NCBI RefSeq assembly: GCF_030384885.1
Contig: NZ_CP128613.1
DNA from: Escherichia coli
GTDB lineage: Bacteria > Pseudomonadota > Gammaproteobacteria > Enterobacterales > Enterobacteriaceae
Length of the DNA: 64,000 nt
Direction: 5' to 3' (one strand)
Positions 13,216 through 60,564 of this stretch are shown one piece after another; the first letter of the stretch is position 1; every line of letters begins with the position of its first letter. A model generated the notes under the pieces. That model worked only from the letters and a program-made list of their open reading frames with translations. It had not been told where the DNA came from and did no database searches. A program made the translations under genes and the position numbers.

Positions 13216-13412
13216 TACTACTCCTGGGCGGTTTACAGGAGTAAGTGTAGACGGCGGTACTGAAAAAACGAAACGAATAAATGATAACAGTAAAAAAATT
13301 CAATTATTCATAATAAATTTCATGGTGGCAAGAAATAGTTTCTTTTCTTCATCGCTCATGGCAGCAACGTTTAACATGTTGTCATCAAAATTATTGATGA
13401 TATTTTTTAATT

Positions 13413-13748
13413 TCAGTAACTGCAAAGGAGAAAAATAGTCACTCCGATGAGATTACTCAATACCAGCAATAGCTCCCCATCATATAAATAGCCCACCATA
13501 AGATTAATCTCTATCATCTCAATTGCTTTTTGTACAGCAAGCGCCGGTAAGATATTCTGACGAAGCATTTTGGCAATATCATTTTCATCCAGTTCATCGG
13601 GTGTTTTATCTAATAAAGAATTATACCAGTTTATTAAACCACTTTTGAAAGCGAACGAATCATATTGCAGGTGATAAATCTGTTTTAGGGTTTCTTTATT
13701 TTTCAATTTATAGTGCCTTTGTTTGCTATAATTTTTCTGAAATAACAT
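13413..13748 (-). CDS. Hypothetical small protein with hydrophobic C-terminus (island ORF 5)
   Basis: 111-aa ORF in AT-rich island; start overlaps stop of upstream ORF (TGATG), indicating translational coupling; no family recognised. Confidence 0.45.
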   Translation of the reverse strand: MLFQKNYSKQRHYKLKNKETLKQIYHLQYDSFAFKSGLINWYNSLLDKTPDELDENDIAKMLRQNILPALAVQKAIEMIEINLMVGYLYDGELLLVLSNLIGVTIFLLCSY

Positions 13749-14215
13749 CAGCGAGTTTGCTCAGGTGCAGGGATGACCGAAATTGTCATGTATTTTTTCA
13801 GTCTGGCTTCTCGTTTCACACCTTTCGGATCTGAACCAAAAGGAAGCGTCAAGCATGGTGAGTCAACGGTTTGGATTGTCCAGAGAGAATCACCAATGAA
13901 TCTGAAATTGATGCTATCCGCTGTAACGGATAATCCCTCAAAACTTCCCGTCGCATACTCATTACCCAAACGTACGGTCTCTTTAACTCCATCGTTAACA
14001 TCGATAAGGACAATTGTCAGTGATTCCTCAAAAATAACGTCATCCGTCAGAAAAAGGATATAACGCTGGTCATTAACCTGAATTGCCGCTTCCAGTATTT
14101 GCCCTGGTACAATAATACCTGTGTTATTGCCATTAAGCACAACGTCAGACTGAGCCTGAGATAAATCAGTCGCTTTGTGAACCTTGACCAACGATATCGA
14201 ATTAACCTGTTGCAT
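13748..14215 (-). CDS. Hypothetical protein (island ORF 4)
   Basis: ORF track gives 13748..14308 from a GTG; I prefer ATG at 14215 (MQQVNSISLV..., 155 aa) because the upstream part is better explained by a separate out-of-frame glycine-zipper ORF ending 2 nt before this ATG. Confidence 0.45.
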   Translation of the reverse strand: MQQVNSISLVKVHKATDLSQAQSDVVLNGNNTGIIVPGQILEAAIQVNDQRYILFLTDDVIFEESLTIVLIDVNDGVKETVRLGNEYATGSFEGLSVTADSINFRFIGDSLWTIQTVDSPCLTLPFGSDPKGVKREARLKKYMTISVIPAPEQTR

Positions 14216-14217
14216 AA

Positions 14218-14358
14218 TCAATTCCACAAGCGCCCCATTTCCCATGCGGCAAGTGCACCGCCGACAAAGCCGCCAATAAGTACGCAAACAGGTGCTCCTG
14301 GACCACACATCAATCCGGTCAACGCACCGCCTGCGACAGCACCGGCAATAATATTCAT
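14218..14358 (-). CDS. 46-aa double glycine-zipper transmembrane micropeptide (island ORF 3)
   Basis: My own translation of the minus strand: MNIIAGAVAGGALTGLMCGPGAPVCVLIGGFVGGALAAWEMGRLWN, stop TGA 2 nt before the next start; two GxxxG-type glycine zippers; not in ORF track (below length cutoff). Confidence 0.4.
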   Translation of the reverse strand: MNIIAGAVAGGALTGLMCGPGAPVCVLIGGFVGGALAAWEMGRLWN

Positions 14359-14541
14359 CCGGGTACGACTGCCAGTGGTTTTAACAGATTTACGCTCACC
14401 GTTACGTATCCTGCCACCACTCAGGTTGCAGACGCGGCAGTCACAGCCTTGACGGTGTTGAAACTAAAGTTCAGGTGATAGTCTGATGTTCATAGTTTGA
14501 GCATTATCCCCTGACAGAATCAAATCAAGCAGTGTCAATGA

Positions 14542-14799
14542 TCACGTGTATATATCATTTAAAGCATTATCAAGCCAATCTTCCATGTTTTTAATTTTAG
14601 CCCGCGCATATAAATCATTCATAACATCCTCATAACTCTGTCCATCATTGACCATACAATTAGCTGTATGAGGCAGAACATGTATAAAATCAGACAATAT
14701 AAAACAAGCCTTTGAATTTCCAGAGTTAGCTGCAATTCTGATATCAATCAATCCTCTGGCAATCAATTTAAGAATAACATCTTGCATTTTAATTTCCAT
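14542..14799 (-). CDS. Hypothetical small cytoplasmic protein, immunity-protein-like (island ORF 2)
   Basis: 85-aa ORF in AT-rich island, co-oriented with neighbours; no family recognised. Confidence 0.45.
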   Translation of the reverse strand: MEIKMQDVILKLIARGLIDIRIAANSGNSKACFILSDFIHVLPHTANCMVNDGQSYEDVMNDLYARAKIKNMEDWLDNALNDIYT

Positions 14800-14881
14800 A
14801 TCATCCAGTTAAATTTCAGTAGTAAATCGTCTATCAAAAAAAGATGAAATTAACATTCATAAATTTATTACAATATGAAAA

Positions 14882-15235
14882 TCAAAAATATACATCATCA
14901 GCTTCTACCGAAAACTCCATGGCTCCTAAGGCACCTAAATCAATACTAAATATAGTATCACTTTCCTTAGCACTCCCAACATAGATAAAATAGCCTAAAT
15001 CTCCGTCTTGACCTATCAAAAAATAGTCAGGTTCCACTTGTTGAATATCATATGTTTCATTTCTTTCAATAAGATCAGAATAGTTATATAAATATAATGT
15101 TTCGTGCTTCTTATTAGTTATTTCATAGGTCTCACTATCTTTAATTTCTTCTATCAAAAAACGTTTATACACTGGAGGAAACTTGATTGACATGTCAAAT
15201 TCAATTTTATTTATATATTCTATAATTTTATTCAT
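14882..15235 (-). CDS. SUKH/SMI1-KNR4-like immunity-type protein (island ORF 1)
   Basis: 117-aa ORF; FPPVYKRFLIEE ... YFLIGQDGDLGYFIYVG resembles the SMI1/KNR4 (SUKH-1) pattern (aromatic/Pro N-terminal motif plus GxDGxGxxxY) seen in polymorphic-toxin immunity proteins; assignment by eye only. Confidence 0.5.
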   Translation of the reverse strand: MNKIIEYINKIEFDMSIKFPPVYKRFLIEEIKDSETYEITNKKHETLYLYNYSDLIERNETYDIQQVEPDYFLIGQDGDLGYFIYVGSAKESDTIFSIDLGALGAMEFSVEADDVYF

Positions 15236-15469
15236 GTTAAGAATACCTGAAAGATTATTTATTGATTATCTTGATGAATATATCTTCACTTTTTATTTTC
15301 ATTTACTCATCGCGGAAATACACATTGCCTTGTAGACAAGCGCTAATAATACGTTATGAACCTGACTTCCGCCAGACAATCAATCTATGAATTCATTACG
15401 CCGTAGTGTTTTAGAAAGACACTTTCTGACCAGATGGTGAACCATATACTACATCGCGCATTATAAAAA

Positions 15470-23883: not shown

Positions 23884-24078
23884 AATTTCTTAATGAAAAT
23901 ATAACCTACGAAATTGCAACATTTAAACAACAAAACAGCATCTAATATGGCGCTATTCATAATTAACGATTTATTATTTGGGGTGTGATCGTTTTTTGTT
24001 GATCTTCTTCACAGTTTATAGCCTTTTCATGGATAGAATAACTCTACCTTCAACTGACACAGCAAAAGGTAAAGGTAA

Positions 24079-24183
24079 ATGGAAAATAATAACCGCTTAA
24101 TGCCTCATATAAGGCGGACAACCCATATCATGAAGTTTGCCCATCGTAATAGTTTTGACTTTCATTTCTTTAATGCCCGTTAG
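24079..24183 (+). CDS. speFL: speF leader peptide (ornithine-sensing ribosome arrest peptide)
   Basis: 34-codon ORF translated by hand: MENNNRLMPHIRRTTHIMKFAHRNSFDFHFFNAR*, about 310 bp upstream of speF; matches the described SpeFL leader; not in ORF track. Confidence 0.8.
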   Translation: MENNNRLMPHIRRTTHIMKFAHRNSFDFHFFNAR

Positions 24184-48106: not shown

Positions 48107-48183
48107 GGCTACGTAGCTCAGTTGGTTAGAGCACATCACTCATAATGATGGGGTCACAGGTTCGAATCCCGTCGTAGCCACCA
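48107..48183 (+). tRNA. metT: tRNA-Met (elongator, anticodon CAT)
   Basis: ggctacgtagctcagttggttagagcacatcactCATaatgatggggtcacaggttcgaatcccgtcgtagccacca; cloverleaf with CCA end. Confidence 0.95.
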
Positions 48184-48191
48184 TCTTTTTT

Positions 48192-48276
48192 GCGGGAGTG
48201 GCGAAATTGGTAGACGCACCAGATTTAGGTTCTGGCGCCGCAAGGTGTGCGAGTTCAAGTCTCGCCTCCCGCACCA
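48192..48276 (+). tRNA. leuW: tRNA-Leu (long variable arm; anticodon read as TAG, assigned by eye)
   Basis: gcgggagtggcgaaattggtagacgcaccagatttaggttctggcgccgcaaggtgtgcgagttcaagtctcgcctcccgcacca (85 nt). Confidence 0.9.
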
Positions 48277-48299
48277 TTCACCAGAAAGCGTTGTACGGA

Positions 48300-48374
48300 T
48301 GGGGTATCGCCAAGCGGTAAGGCACCGGTTTTTGATACCGGCATTCCCTGGTTCGAATCCAGGTACCCCAGCCA
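48300..48374 (+). tRNA. glnU: tRNA-Gln (anticodon TTG)
   Basis: tggggtatcgccaagcggtaaggcaccggtttTTGataccggcattccctggttcgaatccaggtaccccagcca. Confidence 0.9.
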
Positions 48375-48407
48375 TCTTCTTCGAGTAAGCGGTTCACCGC
48401 CCGGTTA

Positions 48408-48482
48408 TTGGGGTATCGCCAAGCGGTAAGGCACCGGTTTTTGATACCGGCATTCCCTGGTTCGAATCCAGGTACCCCAGCC
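48408..48482 (+). tRNA. glnW: tRNA-Gln (anticodon TTG), second copy
   Basis: Identical 75-nt sequence to 48300..48374. Confidence 0.9.
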
Positions 48483-48497
48483 ATCGAAGAAACAATC

Positions 48498-48574
48498 TGG
48501 CTACGTAGCTCAGTTGGTTAGAGCACATCACTCATAATGATGGGGTCACAGGTTCGAATCCCGTCGTAGCCACC
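48498..48574 (+). tRNA. metU: tRNA-Met (elongator, anticodon CAT), second copy
   Basis: Identical to 48107..48183. Confidence 0.95.
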
Positions 48575-48623
48575 AAATTCTGAATGTGTCGAATGCGTTC
48601 GGCAAATTCACAAACCAATTTGT

Positions 48624-48698
48624 TGGGGTATCGCCAAGCGGTAAGGCACCGGATTCTGATTCCGGCATTCCGAGGTTCGAATCCTCGTACCCCAGCCA
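48624..48698 (+). tRNA. glnV: tRNA-Gln (anticodon CTG)
   Basis: tggggtatcgccaagcggtaaggcaccggattCTGattccggcattccgaggttcgaatcctcgtaccccagcca. Confidence 0.9.
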
Positions 48699-48735
48699 AT
48701 TTATTCAAGACGCTTACCTTGTAAGTGCACCCAGT

Positions 48736-48810
48736 TGGGGTATCGCCAAGCGGTAAGGCACCGGATTCTGATTCCGGCATTCCGAGGTTCGAATCCTCGT
48801 ACCCCAGCCA
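48736..48810 (+). tRNA. glnX: tRNA-Gln (anticodon CTG), second copy
   Basis: Identical 75-nt sequence to 48624..48698. Confidence 0.9.
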
Positions 48811-54358: not shown

Positions 54359-55897
54359 ATGGCTTTTGCCTCATTAATTGAACGCCAGCGCATTCGCCTG
54401 CTGCTGGCGTTATTATTCGGTGCCTGCGGAACGCTGGCCTTCTCTCCTTACGACGTCTGGCCTGCGGCGATTATTTCGCTGATGGGACTTCAGGCGCTCA
54501 CCTTTAACCGCCGTCCACTCCAGTCTGCCGCTATTGGCTTTTGCTGGGGATTTGGCCTGTTTGGCAGCGGTATTAACTGGGTCTATGTCAGCATCGCGAC
54601 CTTTGGCGGAATGCCTGGCCCGGTTAACATCTTCCTGGTGATACTGCTGGCAGCGTATTTGTCGCTGTATACCGGACTGTTTGCTGGCGTACTGTCGCGT
54701 CTGTGGCCGAAAACCACCTGGCTGCGCGTGGCGATTGCCGCCCCTGCTCTCTGGCAAGTGACCGAGTTTCTGCGCGGTTGGGTGCTGACTGGCTTCCCGT
54801 GGTTGCAGTTCGGCTATAGCCAGATTGACGGTCCGTTAAAAGGACTGGCACCGATAATGGGCGTGGAAGCCATTAACTTCCTGCTGATGATGGTAAGCGG
54901 CCTGCTGGCACTGGCGTTGGTCAAACGCAACTGGCGTCCGCTGGTGGTGGCCGTCGTGCTGTTCGCCCTTCCCTTCCCGCTGCGTTACATCCAGTGGTTC
55001 ACCCCGCAACCGGAGAAAACCATTCAGGTTTCGATGGTTCAGGGCGACATTCCGCAATCGCTGAAGTGGGATGAAGGCCAGCTTCTCAATACGCTGAAGA
55101 TTTACTACAACGCAACGGCACCGCTGATGGGCAAGTCATCGCTGATTATCTGGCCTGAATCGGCGATAACCGACCTGGAAATTAATCAGCAGCCGTTCCT
55201 CAAAGCACTGGACGGTGAGTTGCGTGATAAAGGTAGCTCGCTGGTCACCGGGATTGTCGACGCGCGTCTCAATAAGCAGAATCGCTACGATACCTACAAC
55301 ACCATCATCACGCTGGGTAAAGGTGCACCGTATAGCTACGAATCAGCCGATCGCTATAACAAAAACCATCTGGTACCGTTTGGCGAGTTTGTCCCGCTGG
55401 AGTCGATTCTGCGTCCGTTAGCACCGTTCTTTGATCTGCCGATGTCGTCATTCAGCCGTGGACCATATATCCAACCACCGCTGTCGGTAAATGGTATTGA
55501 GCTTACTGCGGCTATTTGCTACGAGATCATTCTCGGCGAGCAAGTGCGCGATAACTTCCGCCCGGATACCGACTATCTGCTGACTATCTCCAACGATGCG
55601 TGGTTTGGTAAGTCTATTGGCCCATGGCAGCACTTTCAGATGGCGCGAATGCGTGCGCTGGAGCTGGCGCGCCCGCTGCTGCGTAGCACCAACAACGGCA
55701 TTACGGCGGTGATTGGCCCGCAGGGTGAGATTCAGGCGATGATCCCGCAATTCACCCGCGAAGTGTTAACCACTAATGTGACGCCGACCACCGGACTCAC
55801 ACCGTACGCACGTACCGGCAACTGGCCGCTGTGGGTGCTGACGGCACTGTTTGGTTTTGCCGCTGTGCTGATGAGTCTGCGTCAACGACGTAAATAA
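54359..55897 (+). CDS. lnt: Apolipoprotein N-acyltransferase
   Basis: 512-aa ORF with N-terminal membrane domain and C-terminal nitrilase-like domain. Confidence 0.9.
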
Positions 55898-55900
55898 TCC

Positions 55901-55977
55901 CTTCTTATCGTGCCGGAATACATCCCGTATTTCGGCACGCTCGCCGGATGTGGTATCAGTGCGTTATCCGGATGACA
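55901..55977. repeat. REP-like palindromic elements downstream of lnt
   Basis: tgccggaatacatcccgtatttcggcacgctcgccggatgtggtatcagtgcgttatccggatgac. Confidence 0.5.
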
Positions 55978-56293
55978 AAATTCCCCTATCCAACTTTGGC
56001 ACATCTATTGCTTTGTTATACAAGGCAAAGCTTGAACCCGCGTCAGTACAACCCGGTTGCACCACAGCAATCCACCGGTAGCACCAAAAGAGTGCATTTT
56101 AAGAGTTTTGCTTCGGAATGGTGCGGCGCATCTCGCAAAAACAAACAATAAAACATCAATATCTTTACATTTAGCCAAACTAAATGTTACCTAACAAACA
56201 CAACACTGCACAATAAAGTTGCAGATGATAACAACACAAACACTCACAACGGGTATCCATGCGTTCTTAACGCAGAAGATAAAGGAGTTGGAT

Positions 56294-57202
56294 ATGCAAT
56301 TACGTAAACCTGCCACAGCAATCCTGGCCCTGGCGCTTTCCGCAGGACTGGCACAGGCAGATGACGCCGCCCCGGCAGCAGGCAGTACGCTGGACAAAAT
56401 CGCCAAAAACGGTGTGATTGTCGTCGGTCACCGTGAATCTTCAGTACCTTTCTCTTATTACGACAATCAGCAAAAAGTGGTGGGTTACTCGCAGGATTAC
56501 TCCAACGCCATTGTTGAAGCAGTGAAAAAGAAACTCAACAAACCGGACTTGCAGGTGAAACTGATTCCGATCACCTCACAAAACCGTATTCCGCTGCTGC
56601 AAAACGGCACTTTCGATTTTGAATGTGGTTCAACCACCAACAACGTCGAACGCCAAAAACAGGCGGCTTTCTCTGACACTATTTTCGTGGTCGGTACGCG
56701 CCTGCTGACCAAAAAGGGCGGCGATATCAAAGATTTTGCCGACCTGAAAGGCAAAGCCGTAGTCGTTACTTCCGGCACTACCTCTGAAGTTTTGCTCAAC
56801 AAATTGAATGAAGAGCAAAAAATGAATATGCGCATCATCAGCGCCAAAGATCACGGTGACTCTTTCCGCACCCTGGAAAGCGGTCGTGCCGTTGCCTTTA
56901 TGATGGATGACGCCCTGCTGGCCGGTGAGCGAGCGAAAGCGAAGAAACCAGACAACTGGGAAATCGTCGGCAAGCCGCAGTCTCAGGAAGCCTACGGTTG
57001 CATGTTGCGTAAAGACGATCCGCAGTTCAAAAAGCTGATGGATGACACTATCGCTCAGGTGCAGACCTCCGGTGAAGCGGAAAAATGGTTTGATAAGTGG
57101 TTCAAAAATCCAATTCCGCCGAAAAACCTGAACATGAATTTCGAACTGTCGGACGAAATGAAAGCACTGTTCAAAGAACCGAATGACAAGGCACTGAACT
57201 AA
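56294..57202 (+). CDS. gltI: Glutamate/aspartate ABC transporter periplasmic binding protein
   Basis: ORF 56219..57202; start at MQLRKPATAILALALSAGLAQA (signal peptide), 302 aa. Confidence 0.9.
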   Translation: MQLRKPATAILALALSAGLAQADDAAPAAGSTLDKIAKNGVIVVGHRESSVPFSYYDNQQKVVGYSQDYSNAIVEAVKKKLNKPDLQVKLIPITSQNRIPLLQNGTFDFECGSTTNNVERQKQAAFSDTIFVVGTRLLTKKGGDIKDFADLKGKAVVVTSGTTSEVLLNKLNEEQKMNMRIISAKDHGDSFRTLESGRAVAFMMDDALLAGERAKAKKPDNWEIVGKPQSQEAYGCMLRKDDPQFKKLMDDTIAQVQTSGEAEKWFDKWFKNPIPPKNLNMNFELSDEMKALFKEPNDKALN

Positions 57203-57209
57203 TTACAAG

Positions 57210-57359
57210 AACCAGGGGCGGAAATTCTAGCCCTCTCGATTGTTACGTAGCACGGACAGACTATACGCCTGATGGTCGTTCCCCATCGGGCCTGAAAACC
57301 GCAATACGCTGGGTAACAATCTTCGAGGGTAGCAGTTAACGCTGCTACCCTCTTTTTTC
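57210..57359 (+). ncRNA. sroC: Candidate SroC-type sRNA from the gltI-gltJ intergenic region, ending at an intrinsic terminator
   Basis: 169-bp intergenic spacer inside the operon containing hairpin gagggtagcagttaacgctgctaccctc (57325..57352) plus T-run; SroC is described at this position. 5' end not determinable from sequence. Confidence 0.5.
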
Positions 57360-57371
57360 TGGAGTAGATTT

Positions 57372-58112
57372 ATGTCTATAGACTGGAACTGGGGTATTTT
57401 TTTACAACAAGCCCCGTTCGGCAACACCACCTATCTTGGTTGGATCTGGAGTGGTTTTCAGGTGACGATTGCTTTGTCGATCTGCGCCTGGATTATCGCT
57501 TTCCTCGTCGGTTCATTTTTCGGCATTTTACGTACCGTTCCAAACCGTTTTCTCTCCGGTCTGGGTACGTTGTATGTCGAACTGTTCCGCAACGTGCCGT
57601 TGATTGTGCAATTCTTTACCTGGTATCTGGTTATCCCTGAACTGTTGCCGGAAAAAATCGGCATGTGGTTTAAGGCAGAACTAGACCCCAATATTCAGTT
57701 TTTCCTCTCCTCCATGCTCTGTCTGGGACTGTTTACTGCAGCTCGTGTTTGCGAACAAGTACGCGCCGCGATTCAGTCGTTGCCGCGTGGGCAAAAGAAT
57801 GCCGCGCTGGCAATGGGTCTGACGCTACCGCAGGCTTACCGCTACGTACTGTTGCCTAACGCTTATCGCGTTATCGTCCCGCCAATGACCTCTGAGATGA
57901 TGAACCTGGTGAAAAACTCCGCCATCGCCTCGACTATCGGTCTGGTGGATATGGCGGCGCAGGCCGGTAAATTGCTCGATTACTCAGCCCACGCCTGGGA
58001 GTCATTTACCGCCATTACGCTGGCGTATGTGTTGATTAACGCTTTTATCATGCTGGTGATGACGCTGGTTGAACGTAAAGTTCGCCTGCCCGGCAACATG
58101 GGGGGCAAATAA
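57372..58112 (+). CDS. gltJ: Glutamate/aspartate ABC transporter permease
   Basis: 246-aa polytopic ORF. Confidence 0.9.
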
Positions 58113-58786
58113 TGTACGAGTTTGACTGGAGTTCCATTGTTCCTTCCCTGCCATATCTGCTCGACGGGCTGGTGATCACCCTGAAAATCACCATCACGGC
58201 GGTGGTCATTGGTATTTTGTGGGGTACGATGCTGGCAGTGATGCGCTTGTCCAGCTTTGCGCCGATTGCCTGGTTTGCCAAAGCCTACGTTAACGTGTTC
58301 CGTTCGATCCCGTTAGTCATGGTTTTGCTATGGTTTTACCTGATTGTGCCGGGTTTTCTGCAAAACGTGCTGGGATTATCGCCAAAAAATGATATCCGTT
58401 TAATTTCGGCGATGGTGGCGTTTTCGATGTTTGAAGCGGCCTACTATTCAGAGATTATCCGTGCCGGTATTCAAAGTATTTCCCGTGGGCAGTCGAGCGC
58501 CGCGCTGGCGTTGGGGATGACTCACTGGCAGTCGATGAAACTGATTATTCTGCCGCAGGCGTTCCGCGCGATGGTGCCGCTGCTGCTCACTCAGGGCATC
58601 GTACTGTTCCAGGATACCTCGCTGGTGTATGTGTTATCTCTGGCCGATTTCTTCCGTACCGCCTCAACCATTGGTGAGCGTGATGGTACACAGGTCGAAA
58701 TGATTCTGTTTGCCGGGTTTGTTTATTTCGTTATTAGCCTTAGCGCATCGTTGTTGGTCAGCTACTTGAAAAGAAGGACAGCATAA
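58112..58786 (+). CDS. gltK: Glutamate/aspartate ABC transporter permease
   Basis: 224-aa polytopic ORF, start overlaps gltJ stop. Confidence 0.9.
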
Positions 58787-59511
58787 TGATTACCCTGAAA
58801 AATGTTTCAAAATGGTATGGTCACTTTCAGGTGCTGACCGACTGCTCAACCGAAGTGAGAAAAGGCGAAGTGGTGGTGGTTTGCGGCCCGTCAGGCTCCG
58901 GCAAATCAACACTGATTAAAACCGTCAACGGCCTCGAACCGGTGCAGCAAGGTGAAATCACCGTCGATGGCATCGTGGTTAATGATAAGAAAACCGATCT
59001 GGCAAAGTTGCGTTCCCGCGTCGGGATGGTGTTCCAGCATTTCGAGCTGTTCCCTCATTTGTCGATTATTGAAAACCTGACCCTGGCGCAGGTGAAAGTG
59101 CTTAAACGCGATAAAGCGCCCGCTCGTGAAAAAGCCCTGAAATTACTGGAGCGCGTAGGACTTTCCGCACATGCCAATAAATTTCCAGCGCAGCTTTCCG
59201 GTGGTCAGCAGCAGCGTGTGGCAATCGCTCGCGCATTGTGCATGGACCCTATTGCGATGCTGTTCGACGAACCAACGTCGGCGCTTGACCCGGAGATGAT
59301 CAACGAAGTGCTGGACGTGATGGTCGAACTGGCGAACGAAGGAATGACCATGATGGTGGTGACCCACGAAATGGGCTTTGCCCGCAAAGTGGCGAATCGG
59401 GTGATCTTTATGGATGAAGGTAAAATTGTCGAAGACTCACCGAAAGACGCTTTCTTCGATGATCCGAAATCGGACCGCGCAAAAGACTTCCTCGCGAAAA
59501 TCCTGCACTAA
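58786..59511 (+). CDS. gltL: Glutamate/aspartate ABC transporter ATP-binding protein
   Basis: 241-aa ORF with Walker [13 protein letters not shown] signature [15 protein letters not shown], Walker [11 protein letters not shown]. Confidence 0.95.
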
Positions 59512-59628
59512 TCCTTCTGGCGCGCATACCGAGGTGCGCGCCATCTCACGCTTTATCGTTTCGGCCCTCGTATCTGTTACATTCCGGCGTTACCCTTGTC
59601 GTAAAGAAGCACACAACAAGGAGCAACA

Positions 59629-60564
59629 ATGGCACTGCCAATTCTGTTAGATTGCGACCCAGGTCATGACGACGCTATCGCAATAGTTCTCGCCCTCGCC
59701 TCACCAGAGCTTGATGTCAAAGCAATTACGTCTTCCGCCGGAAACCAGACACCAGAAAAAACCTTACGCAATGTTCTGCGTATGCTGACCTTGCTTAATC
59801 GCACCGATATTCCGGTAGCAGGCGGCGCGGTAAAACCATTAATGCGTGATTTGATTATCGCGGACAATGTGCACGGCGAAAGCGGTCTCGACGGCCCGGC
59901 ATTACCGGAACCAACGTTCGCACCGCAAAACTGCACGGCGGTGGAGCTGATGGCGAAAACGCTGCGTGAAAGTAATGAACCCGTCACGATTGTTTCTACC
60001 GGACCGCAAACTAACGTTGCCTTGCTGCTCAATAGCCATCCGGAATTGCATAGCGAAATCGCCCGAATCGTGATTATGGGCGGCTCAATGGGGCTTGGTA
60101 ACTGGACGCCAGCGGCAGAATTTAATATTTACGTTGACCCAGAAGCGGCAGAAATTGTCTTCCAGTCAGGGATCCCGGTGGTGATGGCCGGTCTGGATGT
60201 TACTCACAAAGCGCAAATTTACGTTGAGGACACCGAGCGTTTCCGCACCATTGGTAACCCGGTTTCTACCATTGTTGCCGAACTGCTGGATTTCTTCCTC
60301 GAATATCACAAAGACGAAAAATGGGGCTTTGTGGGCGCACCGCTGCATGACCCATGCACCATCGCCTGGCTGTTGAAACCAGAGTTGTTTACCACTGTTG
60401 AGCGCTGGGTTGGCGTGGAAACACAGGGGAAATATACTCAGGGCATGACGGTTGTTGATTATTATTATCTGACAGGCAATAAACCGAATGTCACTGTAAT
60501 GGTCGATATTGATCGTCAGGGCTTTGTTGATTTACTGGCTGAGCGTCTGAAATTTTACGCTTAA
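59629..60564 (+). CDS. rihA: Pyrimidine-specific ribonucleoside hydrolase
   Basis: 311-aa ORF with N-terminal DCDPGHDDA nucleoside-hydrolase motif. Confidence 0.9.

Follow-up and report, generated by a model that had tools for sequence, protein, structure and literature searches.

The window, by which we mean the whole stretch of 64,000 nucleotides of Escherichia coli DNA that was analysed (NCBI RefSeq assembly GCF_030384885.1, contig NZ_CP128613.1), contains the gltIJKL operon, and our subject is the spacer between gltI and gltJ. The product of gltI is the periplasmic glutamate/aspartate-binding protein, and its mRNA is the parent of the small RNA SroC. The stop codon of gltI (TAA) occupies 57200-57202 and the start codon of gltJ (ATG) 57372-57374, which leaves a spacer of 169 bp (57203-57371), as read from the sequence and the list of open reading frames; the length given in the first-pass annotation is thereby confirmed. 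The last 11 nt of this spacer (57361-57371) belong to the ribosome-binding region of gltJ and lie outside SroC. The features on which the argument depends are the following.

56216..56253, + strand: C/A-rich part of the 5' UTR of gltI, with complementarity to GcvB in its G/U-rich R1 region (nt 61-95 of GcvB, duplex of -38.2 kcal/mol)
56294..57202, + strand: gltI (open reading frame list; annotation of a RefSeq record with 100% identity over 57100-57450)
57198..57360, + strand: SroC small RNA, 163 nt (Rfam RF00369; MG1655 b4763; 162/163 bases identical)
57215..57234, + strand: SL1, SroC nt 18-37 (MFE structure; MG1655 alignment; 92% of cells paired in 57 sequences)
57238..57321, + strand: SL2, SroC nt 41-124, an irregular hairpin bearing both GcvB contact sites (MFE structure; covariation)
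57254..57261, + strand: BS1, GGACAGAC, SroC nt 57-64, exact 8-nt complement of MG1655 GcvB nt 156-163 in the R3/SL4 region
57276..57282, + strand: BS2, UCGUUCC, SroC nt 79-85, exact 7-nt complement of GcvB nt 13-19 in SL1 of GcvB
57325..57360, + strand: predicted Rho-independent terminator, a 12-bp hairpin (57325-57352) followed by UUUUUUCU; top site of the terminator scan
57361..57374, + strand: gltJ ribosome-binding region, with a GGAG Shine-Dalgarno sequence at 57361-57364, immediately 3' of the terminator (sequence)
57372..59511, + strand: gltJ, gltK and gltL, permeases and ATPase (open reading frames; RefSeq annotation), which would be expressed solely via read-through transcripts

The gene names were taken from the RefSeq record that is identical to the window over 57100-57450. 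The genome of E. coli 2013C-4282 (NZ_CP027579.1), which has 8 base differences from the window over positions 1-50000, is annotated around the site with the gene order lnt, gltI, gltJ, gltK, gltL, rihA.

Some features elsewhere in the window may be mentioned here. K-12 probably has an rhs element around the ybgA-ybfA region. At about 13400-15300 of the window, between ybgA and ybfA, the features given for NZ_CP027579.1 are an immunity gene for contact-dependent inhibition, a fragment of an IS630 transposase and several hypothetical genes. At about 23969-24183, upstream of speF, the gene of the speFL leader peptide is overlapped by a 132-nt coding sequence that the matching RefSeq record calls "TonB-dependent receptor" and that seems to be an artefact of annotation. 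The + strand also carries a cluster of seven tRNA genes (Met, Leu, Gln, Gln, Met, Gln, Gln) at 48107-48810, found with Rfam and annotated in the matching genome.

When the whole window was scanned with Rfam 15, eight matches were obtained, the seven tRNAs at 48.1-48.8 kb and one small RNA, sroC (RF00369), at 57198-57360 on the + strand. The latter scores 170.8 bits (E = 7e-36) against a gathering score of 45 bits, and spans model positions 1-163 of 163, so that the match is not truncated. It begins 5 nt inside the gltI coding sequence and ends at the U-tract of the terminator. In MG1655 the ncRNA gene sroC (b4763) occupies 686681-686843, shares 5 nt with the end of gltI and stops 11 nt short of gltJ; the relative coordinates of the two are thus identical, in agreement with the first-pass annotation, which had named SroC as reported from exactly this position. 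The alignment with the known SroC sequence that it had proposed as a check shows 162 of 163 positions identical, with no gap. Where it had taken the feature to be the whole spacer, the bounds of the spacer were right, but the RNA itself is 57198-57360. The window and MG1655 have two base differences over 57150-57400, a single one of them within sroC, at 57228, where the window has T and K-12 has C; a G-C pair of the predicted SL1 thereby becomes a G-U pair, and the structure is kept. The resulting 163-nt allele is found with 100% identity in at least 40 complete E. coli genomes, O157:H7 strains among them, and the sroC locus was found in 5421 of 5426 complete E. coli genomes. One detail of the boundaries calls for caution: the exact 5' end of SroC is not readable from the sequence, and the numbering used in Salmonella puts it about 3 nt upstream of the K-12 annotation.

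RefSeq/PGAP records of E. coli list just gltI and gltJ beneath this match, and sroC is annotated only in the curated record of MG1655; the gene is therefore mostly unannotated.

The folding that had been suggested earlier was run on 57198-57360 and bears out a highly structured RNA, with a minimum free energy (MFE) of -64.1 kcal/mol (z = -5.9), a stability reached by 0 of 200 shuffled sequences. The predicted fold consists of three elements, SL1, the long irregular SL2 and the terminator. The comparative evidence for this fold comes from 80 loci with close relatives of GltI, one genome per species, in the Enterobacteriaceae (the genera include Escherichia, Salmonella, Citrobacter, Enterobacter, Klebsiella, Kluyvera, Leclercia, Buttiauxella, Cedecea and Atlantibacter). 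A homologue of SroC is detectable by blastn directly after gltI in all 80. From these, 57 distinct sequences of normal length, representing about 25 genera, were aligned with MAFFT, and RNAalifold predicts SL2 and the terminator on this alignment. Base pairs were counted on that structure with SL1 added, and the controls were shuffles of the columns and partners slid by 1-3 columns. Paired cells amount to 96.5%, compared with 88.3 ± 0.4% in the column shuffles and 43-57% in the slid controls, and 16 of 35 pairs have changed on both sides; 0 of 500 shuffles reached the observed values. The covariation is concentrated in SL2, whose helices 2-4 are 93-99% paired with compensatory changes in 14 of 20 pairs, and in SL1 two of seven pairs have changed on both sides. 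In the core of the terminator stem seven of the eight pairs are constant and the remaining one has changed on a single side; being essentially invariant, this stem is uninformative on covariation.

The sites at which SroC would contact GcvB were sought as exact complements of the MG1655 gcvB sequence. The two that are listed above, BS1 and BS2, are separated by 14 nt in the SroC of the window, and BS2 makes up the entire 7-nt apical loop of SL2 in the MFE structure. BS1 is present without change in 80 of 80 loci, and so is [U/C]CGUUCC (found as G[U/C]CGUUCC), which lies 14 nt after BS1 in 79 of them, and the stems around and between the two sites vary freely across loci, with covariation. The published mapping has two pairing regions, each of 7 or 8 nt, which are separated by 14 nt in SroC and distant from one another in GcvB, and in Salmonella the pairs C63:G160 (BS1) and C87:G14 (BS2) were validated by compensatory mutations (PMC4474525). 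In the window, C60 of SroC (57257) stands opposite G160 of GcvB and C84 (57281) opposite G14; they are the published C63 and C87 after a numbering offset of +3, the distance from C to C being 24 nt in both cases.

Taken by itself, the complementarity of BS1 and BS2 to GcvB is not statistically significant: among shuffled SroC sequences, 78% match GcvB perfectly over at least one 7-mer, and 43% over at least two. The two sites carry weight because they coincide with sites that have been mapped experimentally and because they are conserved. Full-length RNAduplex predictions of SroC with GcvB or with MgrR were rejected, since this approach ignores intramolecular structure and returns meaningless end-to-end duplexes. 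A search by simple complementarity found no convincing MgrR site in SroC, the best being an 8-mer match to the terminator of MgrR. The gene gcvB itself lies outside the window; of 5426 complete E. coli genomes 5425 carry it, 5389 of them with at least 99% identity, and this strain thus probably has it too.

The terminator ranks first in the terminator scan, with a stem of 12 pairs (7 of them G-C) and a 4-nt loop at 57325-57352, then TTTTTTCT. Folded alone, the hairpin has -22.7 kcal/mol (z = -6.4), a stability that none of 200 shuffles attains. The T-run (TTTTTT) occupies 57353-57358 and ends 13 nt before the ATG of gltJ, and the annotated 3' end of SroC (57360) is 11 nt before it; the 12 nt given previously were right to within a base. 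In the set of 80 loci the terminator is retained throughout, like BS1 and BS2, and the end of the U-run is 10-15 nt from the ATG of gltJ; the terminator together with its placement just before the gltJ ribosome-binding site is kept in 79. This hairpin is predicted to form the 3' end of both the gltI mRNA and SroC, in which case gltJKL would need read-through.

The terminator had been called strong in the first-pass annotation, and on paper it is, but in vivo it is described as leaky: the single promoter of gltIJKL gives rise to an operon mRNA and, via a "leaky Rho-independent terminator", to a monocistronic gltI mRNA (PMC4474525). According to the same study, the leaky terminator gives the periplasmic binding protein in excess and yields SroC too, which supports the polarity (more binding protein than permease) that had been deduced from the architecture of the spacer.

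The hairpin is not the same everywhere. That of Salmonella diarizonae (L009:3025-3061), as in most other genera, has 9 bp and -13.7 kcal/mol, compared with 12 bp and -22.7 kcal/mol in the window. The extra bases that lengthen it (alignment columns 164-177) are present in Escherichia and, independently, in Kluyvera-like loci; the longer hairpin of Escherichia might shift the ratio of termination to read-through. In Cedecea colo (L081), where the spacer has 339 nt, the terminator is present twice: the first copy is degenerate, its stem having a mismatch and its U-run missing, and beyond about 150 nt of extra sequence a second, intact copy adjoins gltJ.

The processing and the action of SroC are known from published work. 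The 5' end of SroC bears a monophosphate and falls within the coding sequence of gltI, and the RNA lacks a separate transcription start site; the 3' end has been attributed to the conserved terminator (PMC4474525). In Salmonella its release was shown to need RNase E, in a 5'-end-dependent manner, and Hfq was needed for correct maturation in vitro (PMC4474525). The earlier description of a stable sRNA derived from a 3' end is thus supported by the literature, with the qualification that it is RNase E, cutting within gltI, that makes the 5' end. No sigma-70-like promoter was detected on the + strand over 55800-59800, but the scan missed the promoter of gltI as well, and says little on a promoter for SroC for this reason. 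In both E. coli and Salmonella, SroC is associated with Hfq and has a half-life above 16-32 min (literature including PMC10250213).

The target is GcvB. In Salmonella the half-life of GcvB falls from more than 15 min to 1.7 min with SroC, a depletion for which Hfq is required, and in E. coli it is 3.8 min with SroC, instead of more than 16 min (PMC10250213). SroC triggers a 5'-end-independent cleavage of GcvB by RNase E and is not itself co-degraded (PMC4474525). The expression "sponge of GcvB", used in the first-pass annotation, is therefore right as regards the pairing of the two RNAs, which is published for Salmonella and E. coli, but too narrow as regards its outcome, which is decay by RNase E triggered by pairing and not sequestration alone. 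In RIL-seq data from E. coli, the share of GcvB-SroC among the GcvB chimeras rises to about 70% in stationary phase (PMC9299463). SroC has also been reported to sponge MgrR and to repress fliE/flhBAE (PMC9438474). Finally, GcvB targets gltI via a C/A-rich site in its 5' UTR (PMC4474525), to which the stretch at 56216-56253 corresponds. The main text of a paper on 3'-end mapping in E. coli (PMC7815308) mentions neither sroC nor gltI nor gltJ.

We are nearly certain that the gltI-gltJ spacer encodes SroC, cut by RNase E from the gltI message and triggering the decay of GcvB. The evidence from the window is the family match, the position, the structure with its covariation, the conservation of the pairing sites and the terminator; expression, processing by RNase E, dependence on Hfq and decay of GcvB come from publications on K-12 and Salmonella, and we infer that they hold for this strain because 162 of 163 bases are identical. 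The sequence of events would then be as follows. Transcription would start at the sole promoter of gltIJKL, part of it halting at the terminator (57325-57360) and the rest entering gltJKL; the terminated fraction would be the monocistronic gltI mRNA, hence more binding protein than permease. The cut that RNase E makes in this terminated transcript would fall near 57198, just upstream of the stop codon of gltI, and would free the very stable SroC, an RNA of about 160 nt which, in association with Hfq, would pair through the exposed BS1 and the loop of BS2 with the R3/SL4 and SL1 regions of GcvB. This pairing, together with Hfq, would open GcvB to RNase E, and the fall of GcvB would de-repress many targets in the transport and metabolism of amino acids, gltI included via 56216-56253. 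Since gltI is itself a target of GcvB through its C/A-rich site, SroC would de-repress its own parental mRNA, thereby closing a feed-forward loop.

A point that this scenario leaves aside is the extreme conservation of some blocks of the spacer. The core of the terminator, GAGGGUAG (57325-57332) and CUACCCU (57345-57351), is invariant in the 57 sequences from about 25 genera, in which adjacent helices covary, and the same is true of AAUCUUC just before the terminator (57318-57324) and of CCCUC.CGA after SL1 (57232-57239). This invariance is explained neither by contacts with GcvB nor by simple terminator function, since a terminator needs a G+C-rich hairpin and not a fixed sequence. The authors of the 2015 study already saw this extra conservation and suggested that a cis element or a trans factor might control termination (PMC4474525). 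That the invariant nucleotides outside the GcvB contacts form a control element (a binding site for a protein or an RNA, or an alternative fold) tuning the terminator is an idea that we regard as rather unlikely; if it were true, the output of SroC and the stoichiometry of GltI to GltJKL would be a regulated decision and not a fixed leak.

In its most explicit form, this idea makes the spacer an attenuator as well, in which an alternative pairing or a trans factor would set the frequency of termination, and with it the release of SroC against read-through into gltJKL; such an attenuator is compatible with SroC being encoded here. There is a candidate for the alternative pairing: GCCCUC (nt 33-38), which belongs to the 3' arm of SL1, is able to pair with GAGGGU (nt 128-133) in the 5' arm of the terminator. 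When the nascent E. coli RNA has reached 135-143 nt, its MFE structure includes this helix, with -44.6 kcal/mol as compared with -41.4 kcal/mol when SL1 is kept. However, only 7 of the 57 sequences, all of them from Escherichia, have it in the MFE structure of the nascent RNA, with a mean gain of about 2 kcal/mol, and the full-length RNA loses about 12 kcal/mol when a neighbouring register (C36-C40 with G128-G132) is forced on it. Nor does covariation support it: changes in region 2 of two loci (L081 and L082) are uncompensated in region 3, and that of L081 is compensated within SL1. Three Citrobacter loci with a repeat of about 130 nt between the gltI stop codon and SL1 argue against a mechanism based on the distance between the two, and they weaken the related proposal of SL1 being opened by a ribosome that terminates at this stop codon. 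We thus think that regulated termination at the SroC terminator is possible but unsupported, the evidence against the antiterminator outweighing the evidence for it, and we hold it to be improbable.

The identification of SroC has also to be set against the view, current before 2015, that the spacer is only an intra-operon terminator setting the ratio of GltI to GltJKL, the fragment of 160 nt being an inert decay intermediate. The near-universal retention of the terminator and of its position before the gltJ ribosome-binding site (79/80 loci) would fit this view. A plain terminator spacer, however, would not be expected to conserve the unpaired nucleotides of BS1 and BS2 across 80 species while the neighbouring stems covary. 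In experiments, point mutations in BS1 and BS2 abolish the destabilisation of GcvB and compensatory changes in GcvB restore it (PMC4474525), which refutes this view for K-12 and Salmonella, and the SroC homologue of E. coli is functional (PMC4474525, PMC10250213). We therefore consider it hardly credible for the window.

The last proposal, that the spacer is one copy of a dispersed intergenic repeat (REP or ERIC) and not a specific gene, has a practically negligible probability: structured GC-rich intergenic hairpins within operons are indeed often REP elements, and ERIC-like repeats do occur inside the gltI-gltJ spacer of other genera, but we reject it because the sequence is single-copy (median of 1 place per genome; 5431 places in 5421 genomes), and the spacer of the window, which aligns to K-12 sroC gap-free, carries no such insertion.

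The insertions seen in these relatives are worth describing for their own sake. A dispersed repeat of about 115-130 nt lies inside the sroC homologue of three Citrobacter loci (L015, L023 and L047, with a spacer of 288 nt), and of four loci from Yokenella, Trabulsiella and others (L035, L037, L044 and L069, with spacers of 282-336 nt). Two sites of insertion are used, either between the gltI stop codon and SL1 or in the 3' half of SL2. By its consensus, the repeat is presumably ERIC/IRU-like; an E. coli genome has it at 8 places (median), and no annotated feature lies under the six best matches listed. BS1, BS2 and the terminator are retained in the loci with an insertion, and these species should therefore make a much longer SroC.

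With SroC as the preferred reading, the copy in the window is that of a known and well-characterised sRNA gene; it shows nothing unusual, and we claim no novelty for it. It adds no new biology, but it is a real non-coding gene omitted by standard RefSeq/PGAP annotation. The interest of SroC is more general: it is a textbook case of an mRNA that regulates others by an RNA sponge, and it ties the expression of the glutamate/aspartate transporter to the whole amino-acid regulon of GcvB.

It remains to place this locus among known systems. The SroC of K-12 (b4763) and of Salmonella (Miyakoshi, Chao & Vogel 2015) shares with the window the gltI-gltJ locus, the three hairpins, the GcvB sites with their 14-nt spacing, and the terminator. 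That of K-12 has 163 nt likewise and is distinguished from the window by the base at 57228, where the allele with T for C is widespread in E. coli; a difference from Salmonella and most other genera is the longer terminator of Escherichia. Several other sRNAs (CpxQ, SdhX, NarS, OppZ and MalH) resemble SroC in being mRNA 3' ends released by RNase E, with the terminator of the host gene, association with Hfq and a 5' monophosphate (PMC9438474, PMC10250213). SroC differs from them in two respects: it comes from an internal terminator in mid-operon, and not from the end of an operon, and its main target is another sRNA (GcvB, and also MgrR), whereas theirs are mRNAs. In this last respect a parallel is the sponge of ChiX in the chbBC spacer, which is, like SroC, an mRNA-derived RNA that lowers an sRNA of the same pathway. 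The means nevertheless differ, since the decay of ChiX involves a change in its terminator and PNPase (PMC4474525), whereas SroC exposes GcvB to RNase E independently of its 5' end.
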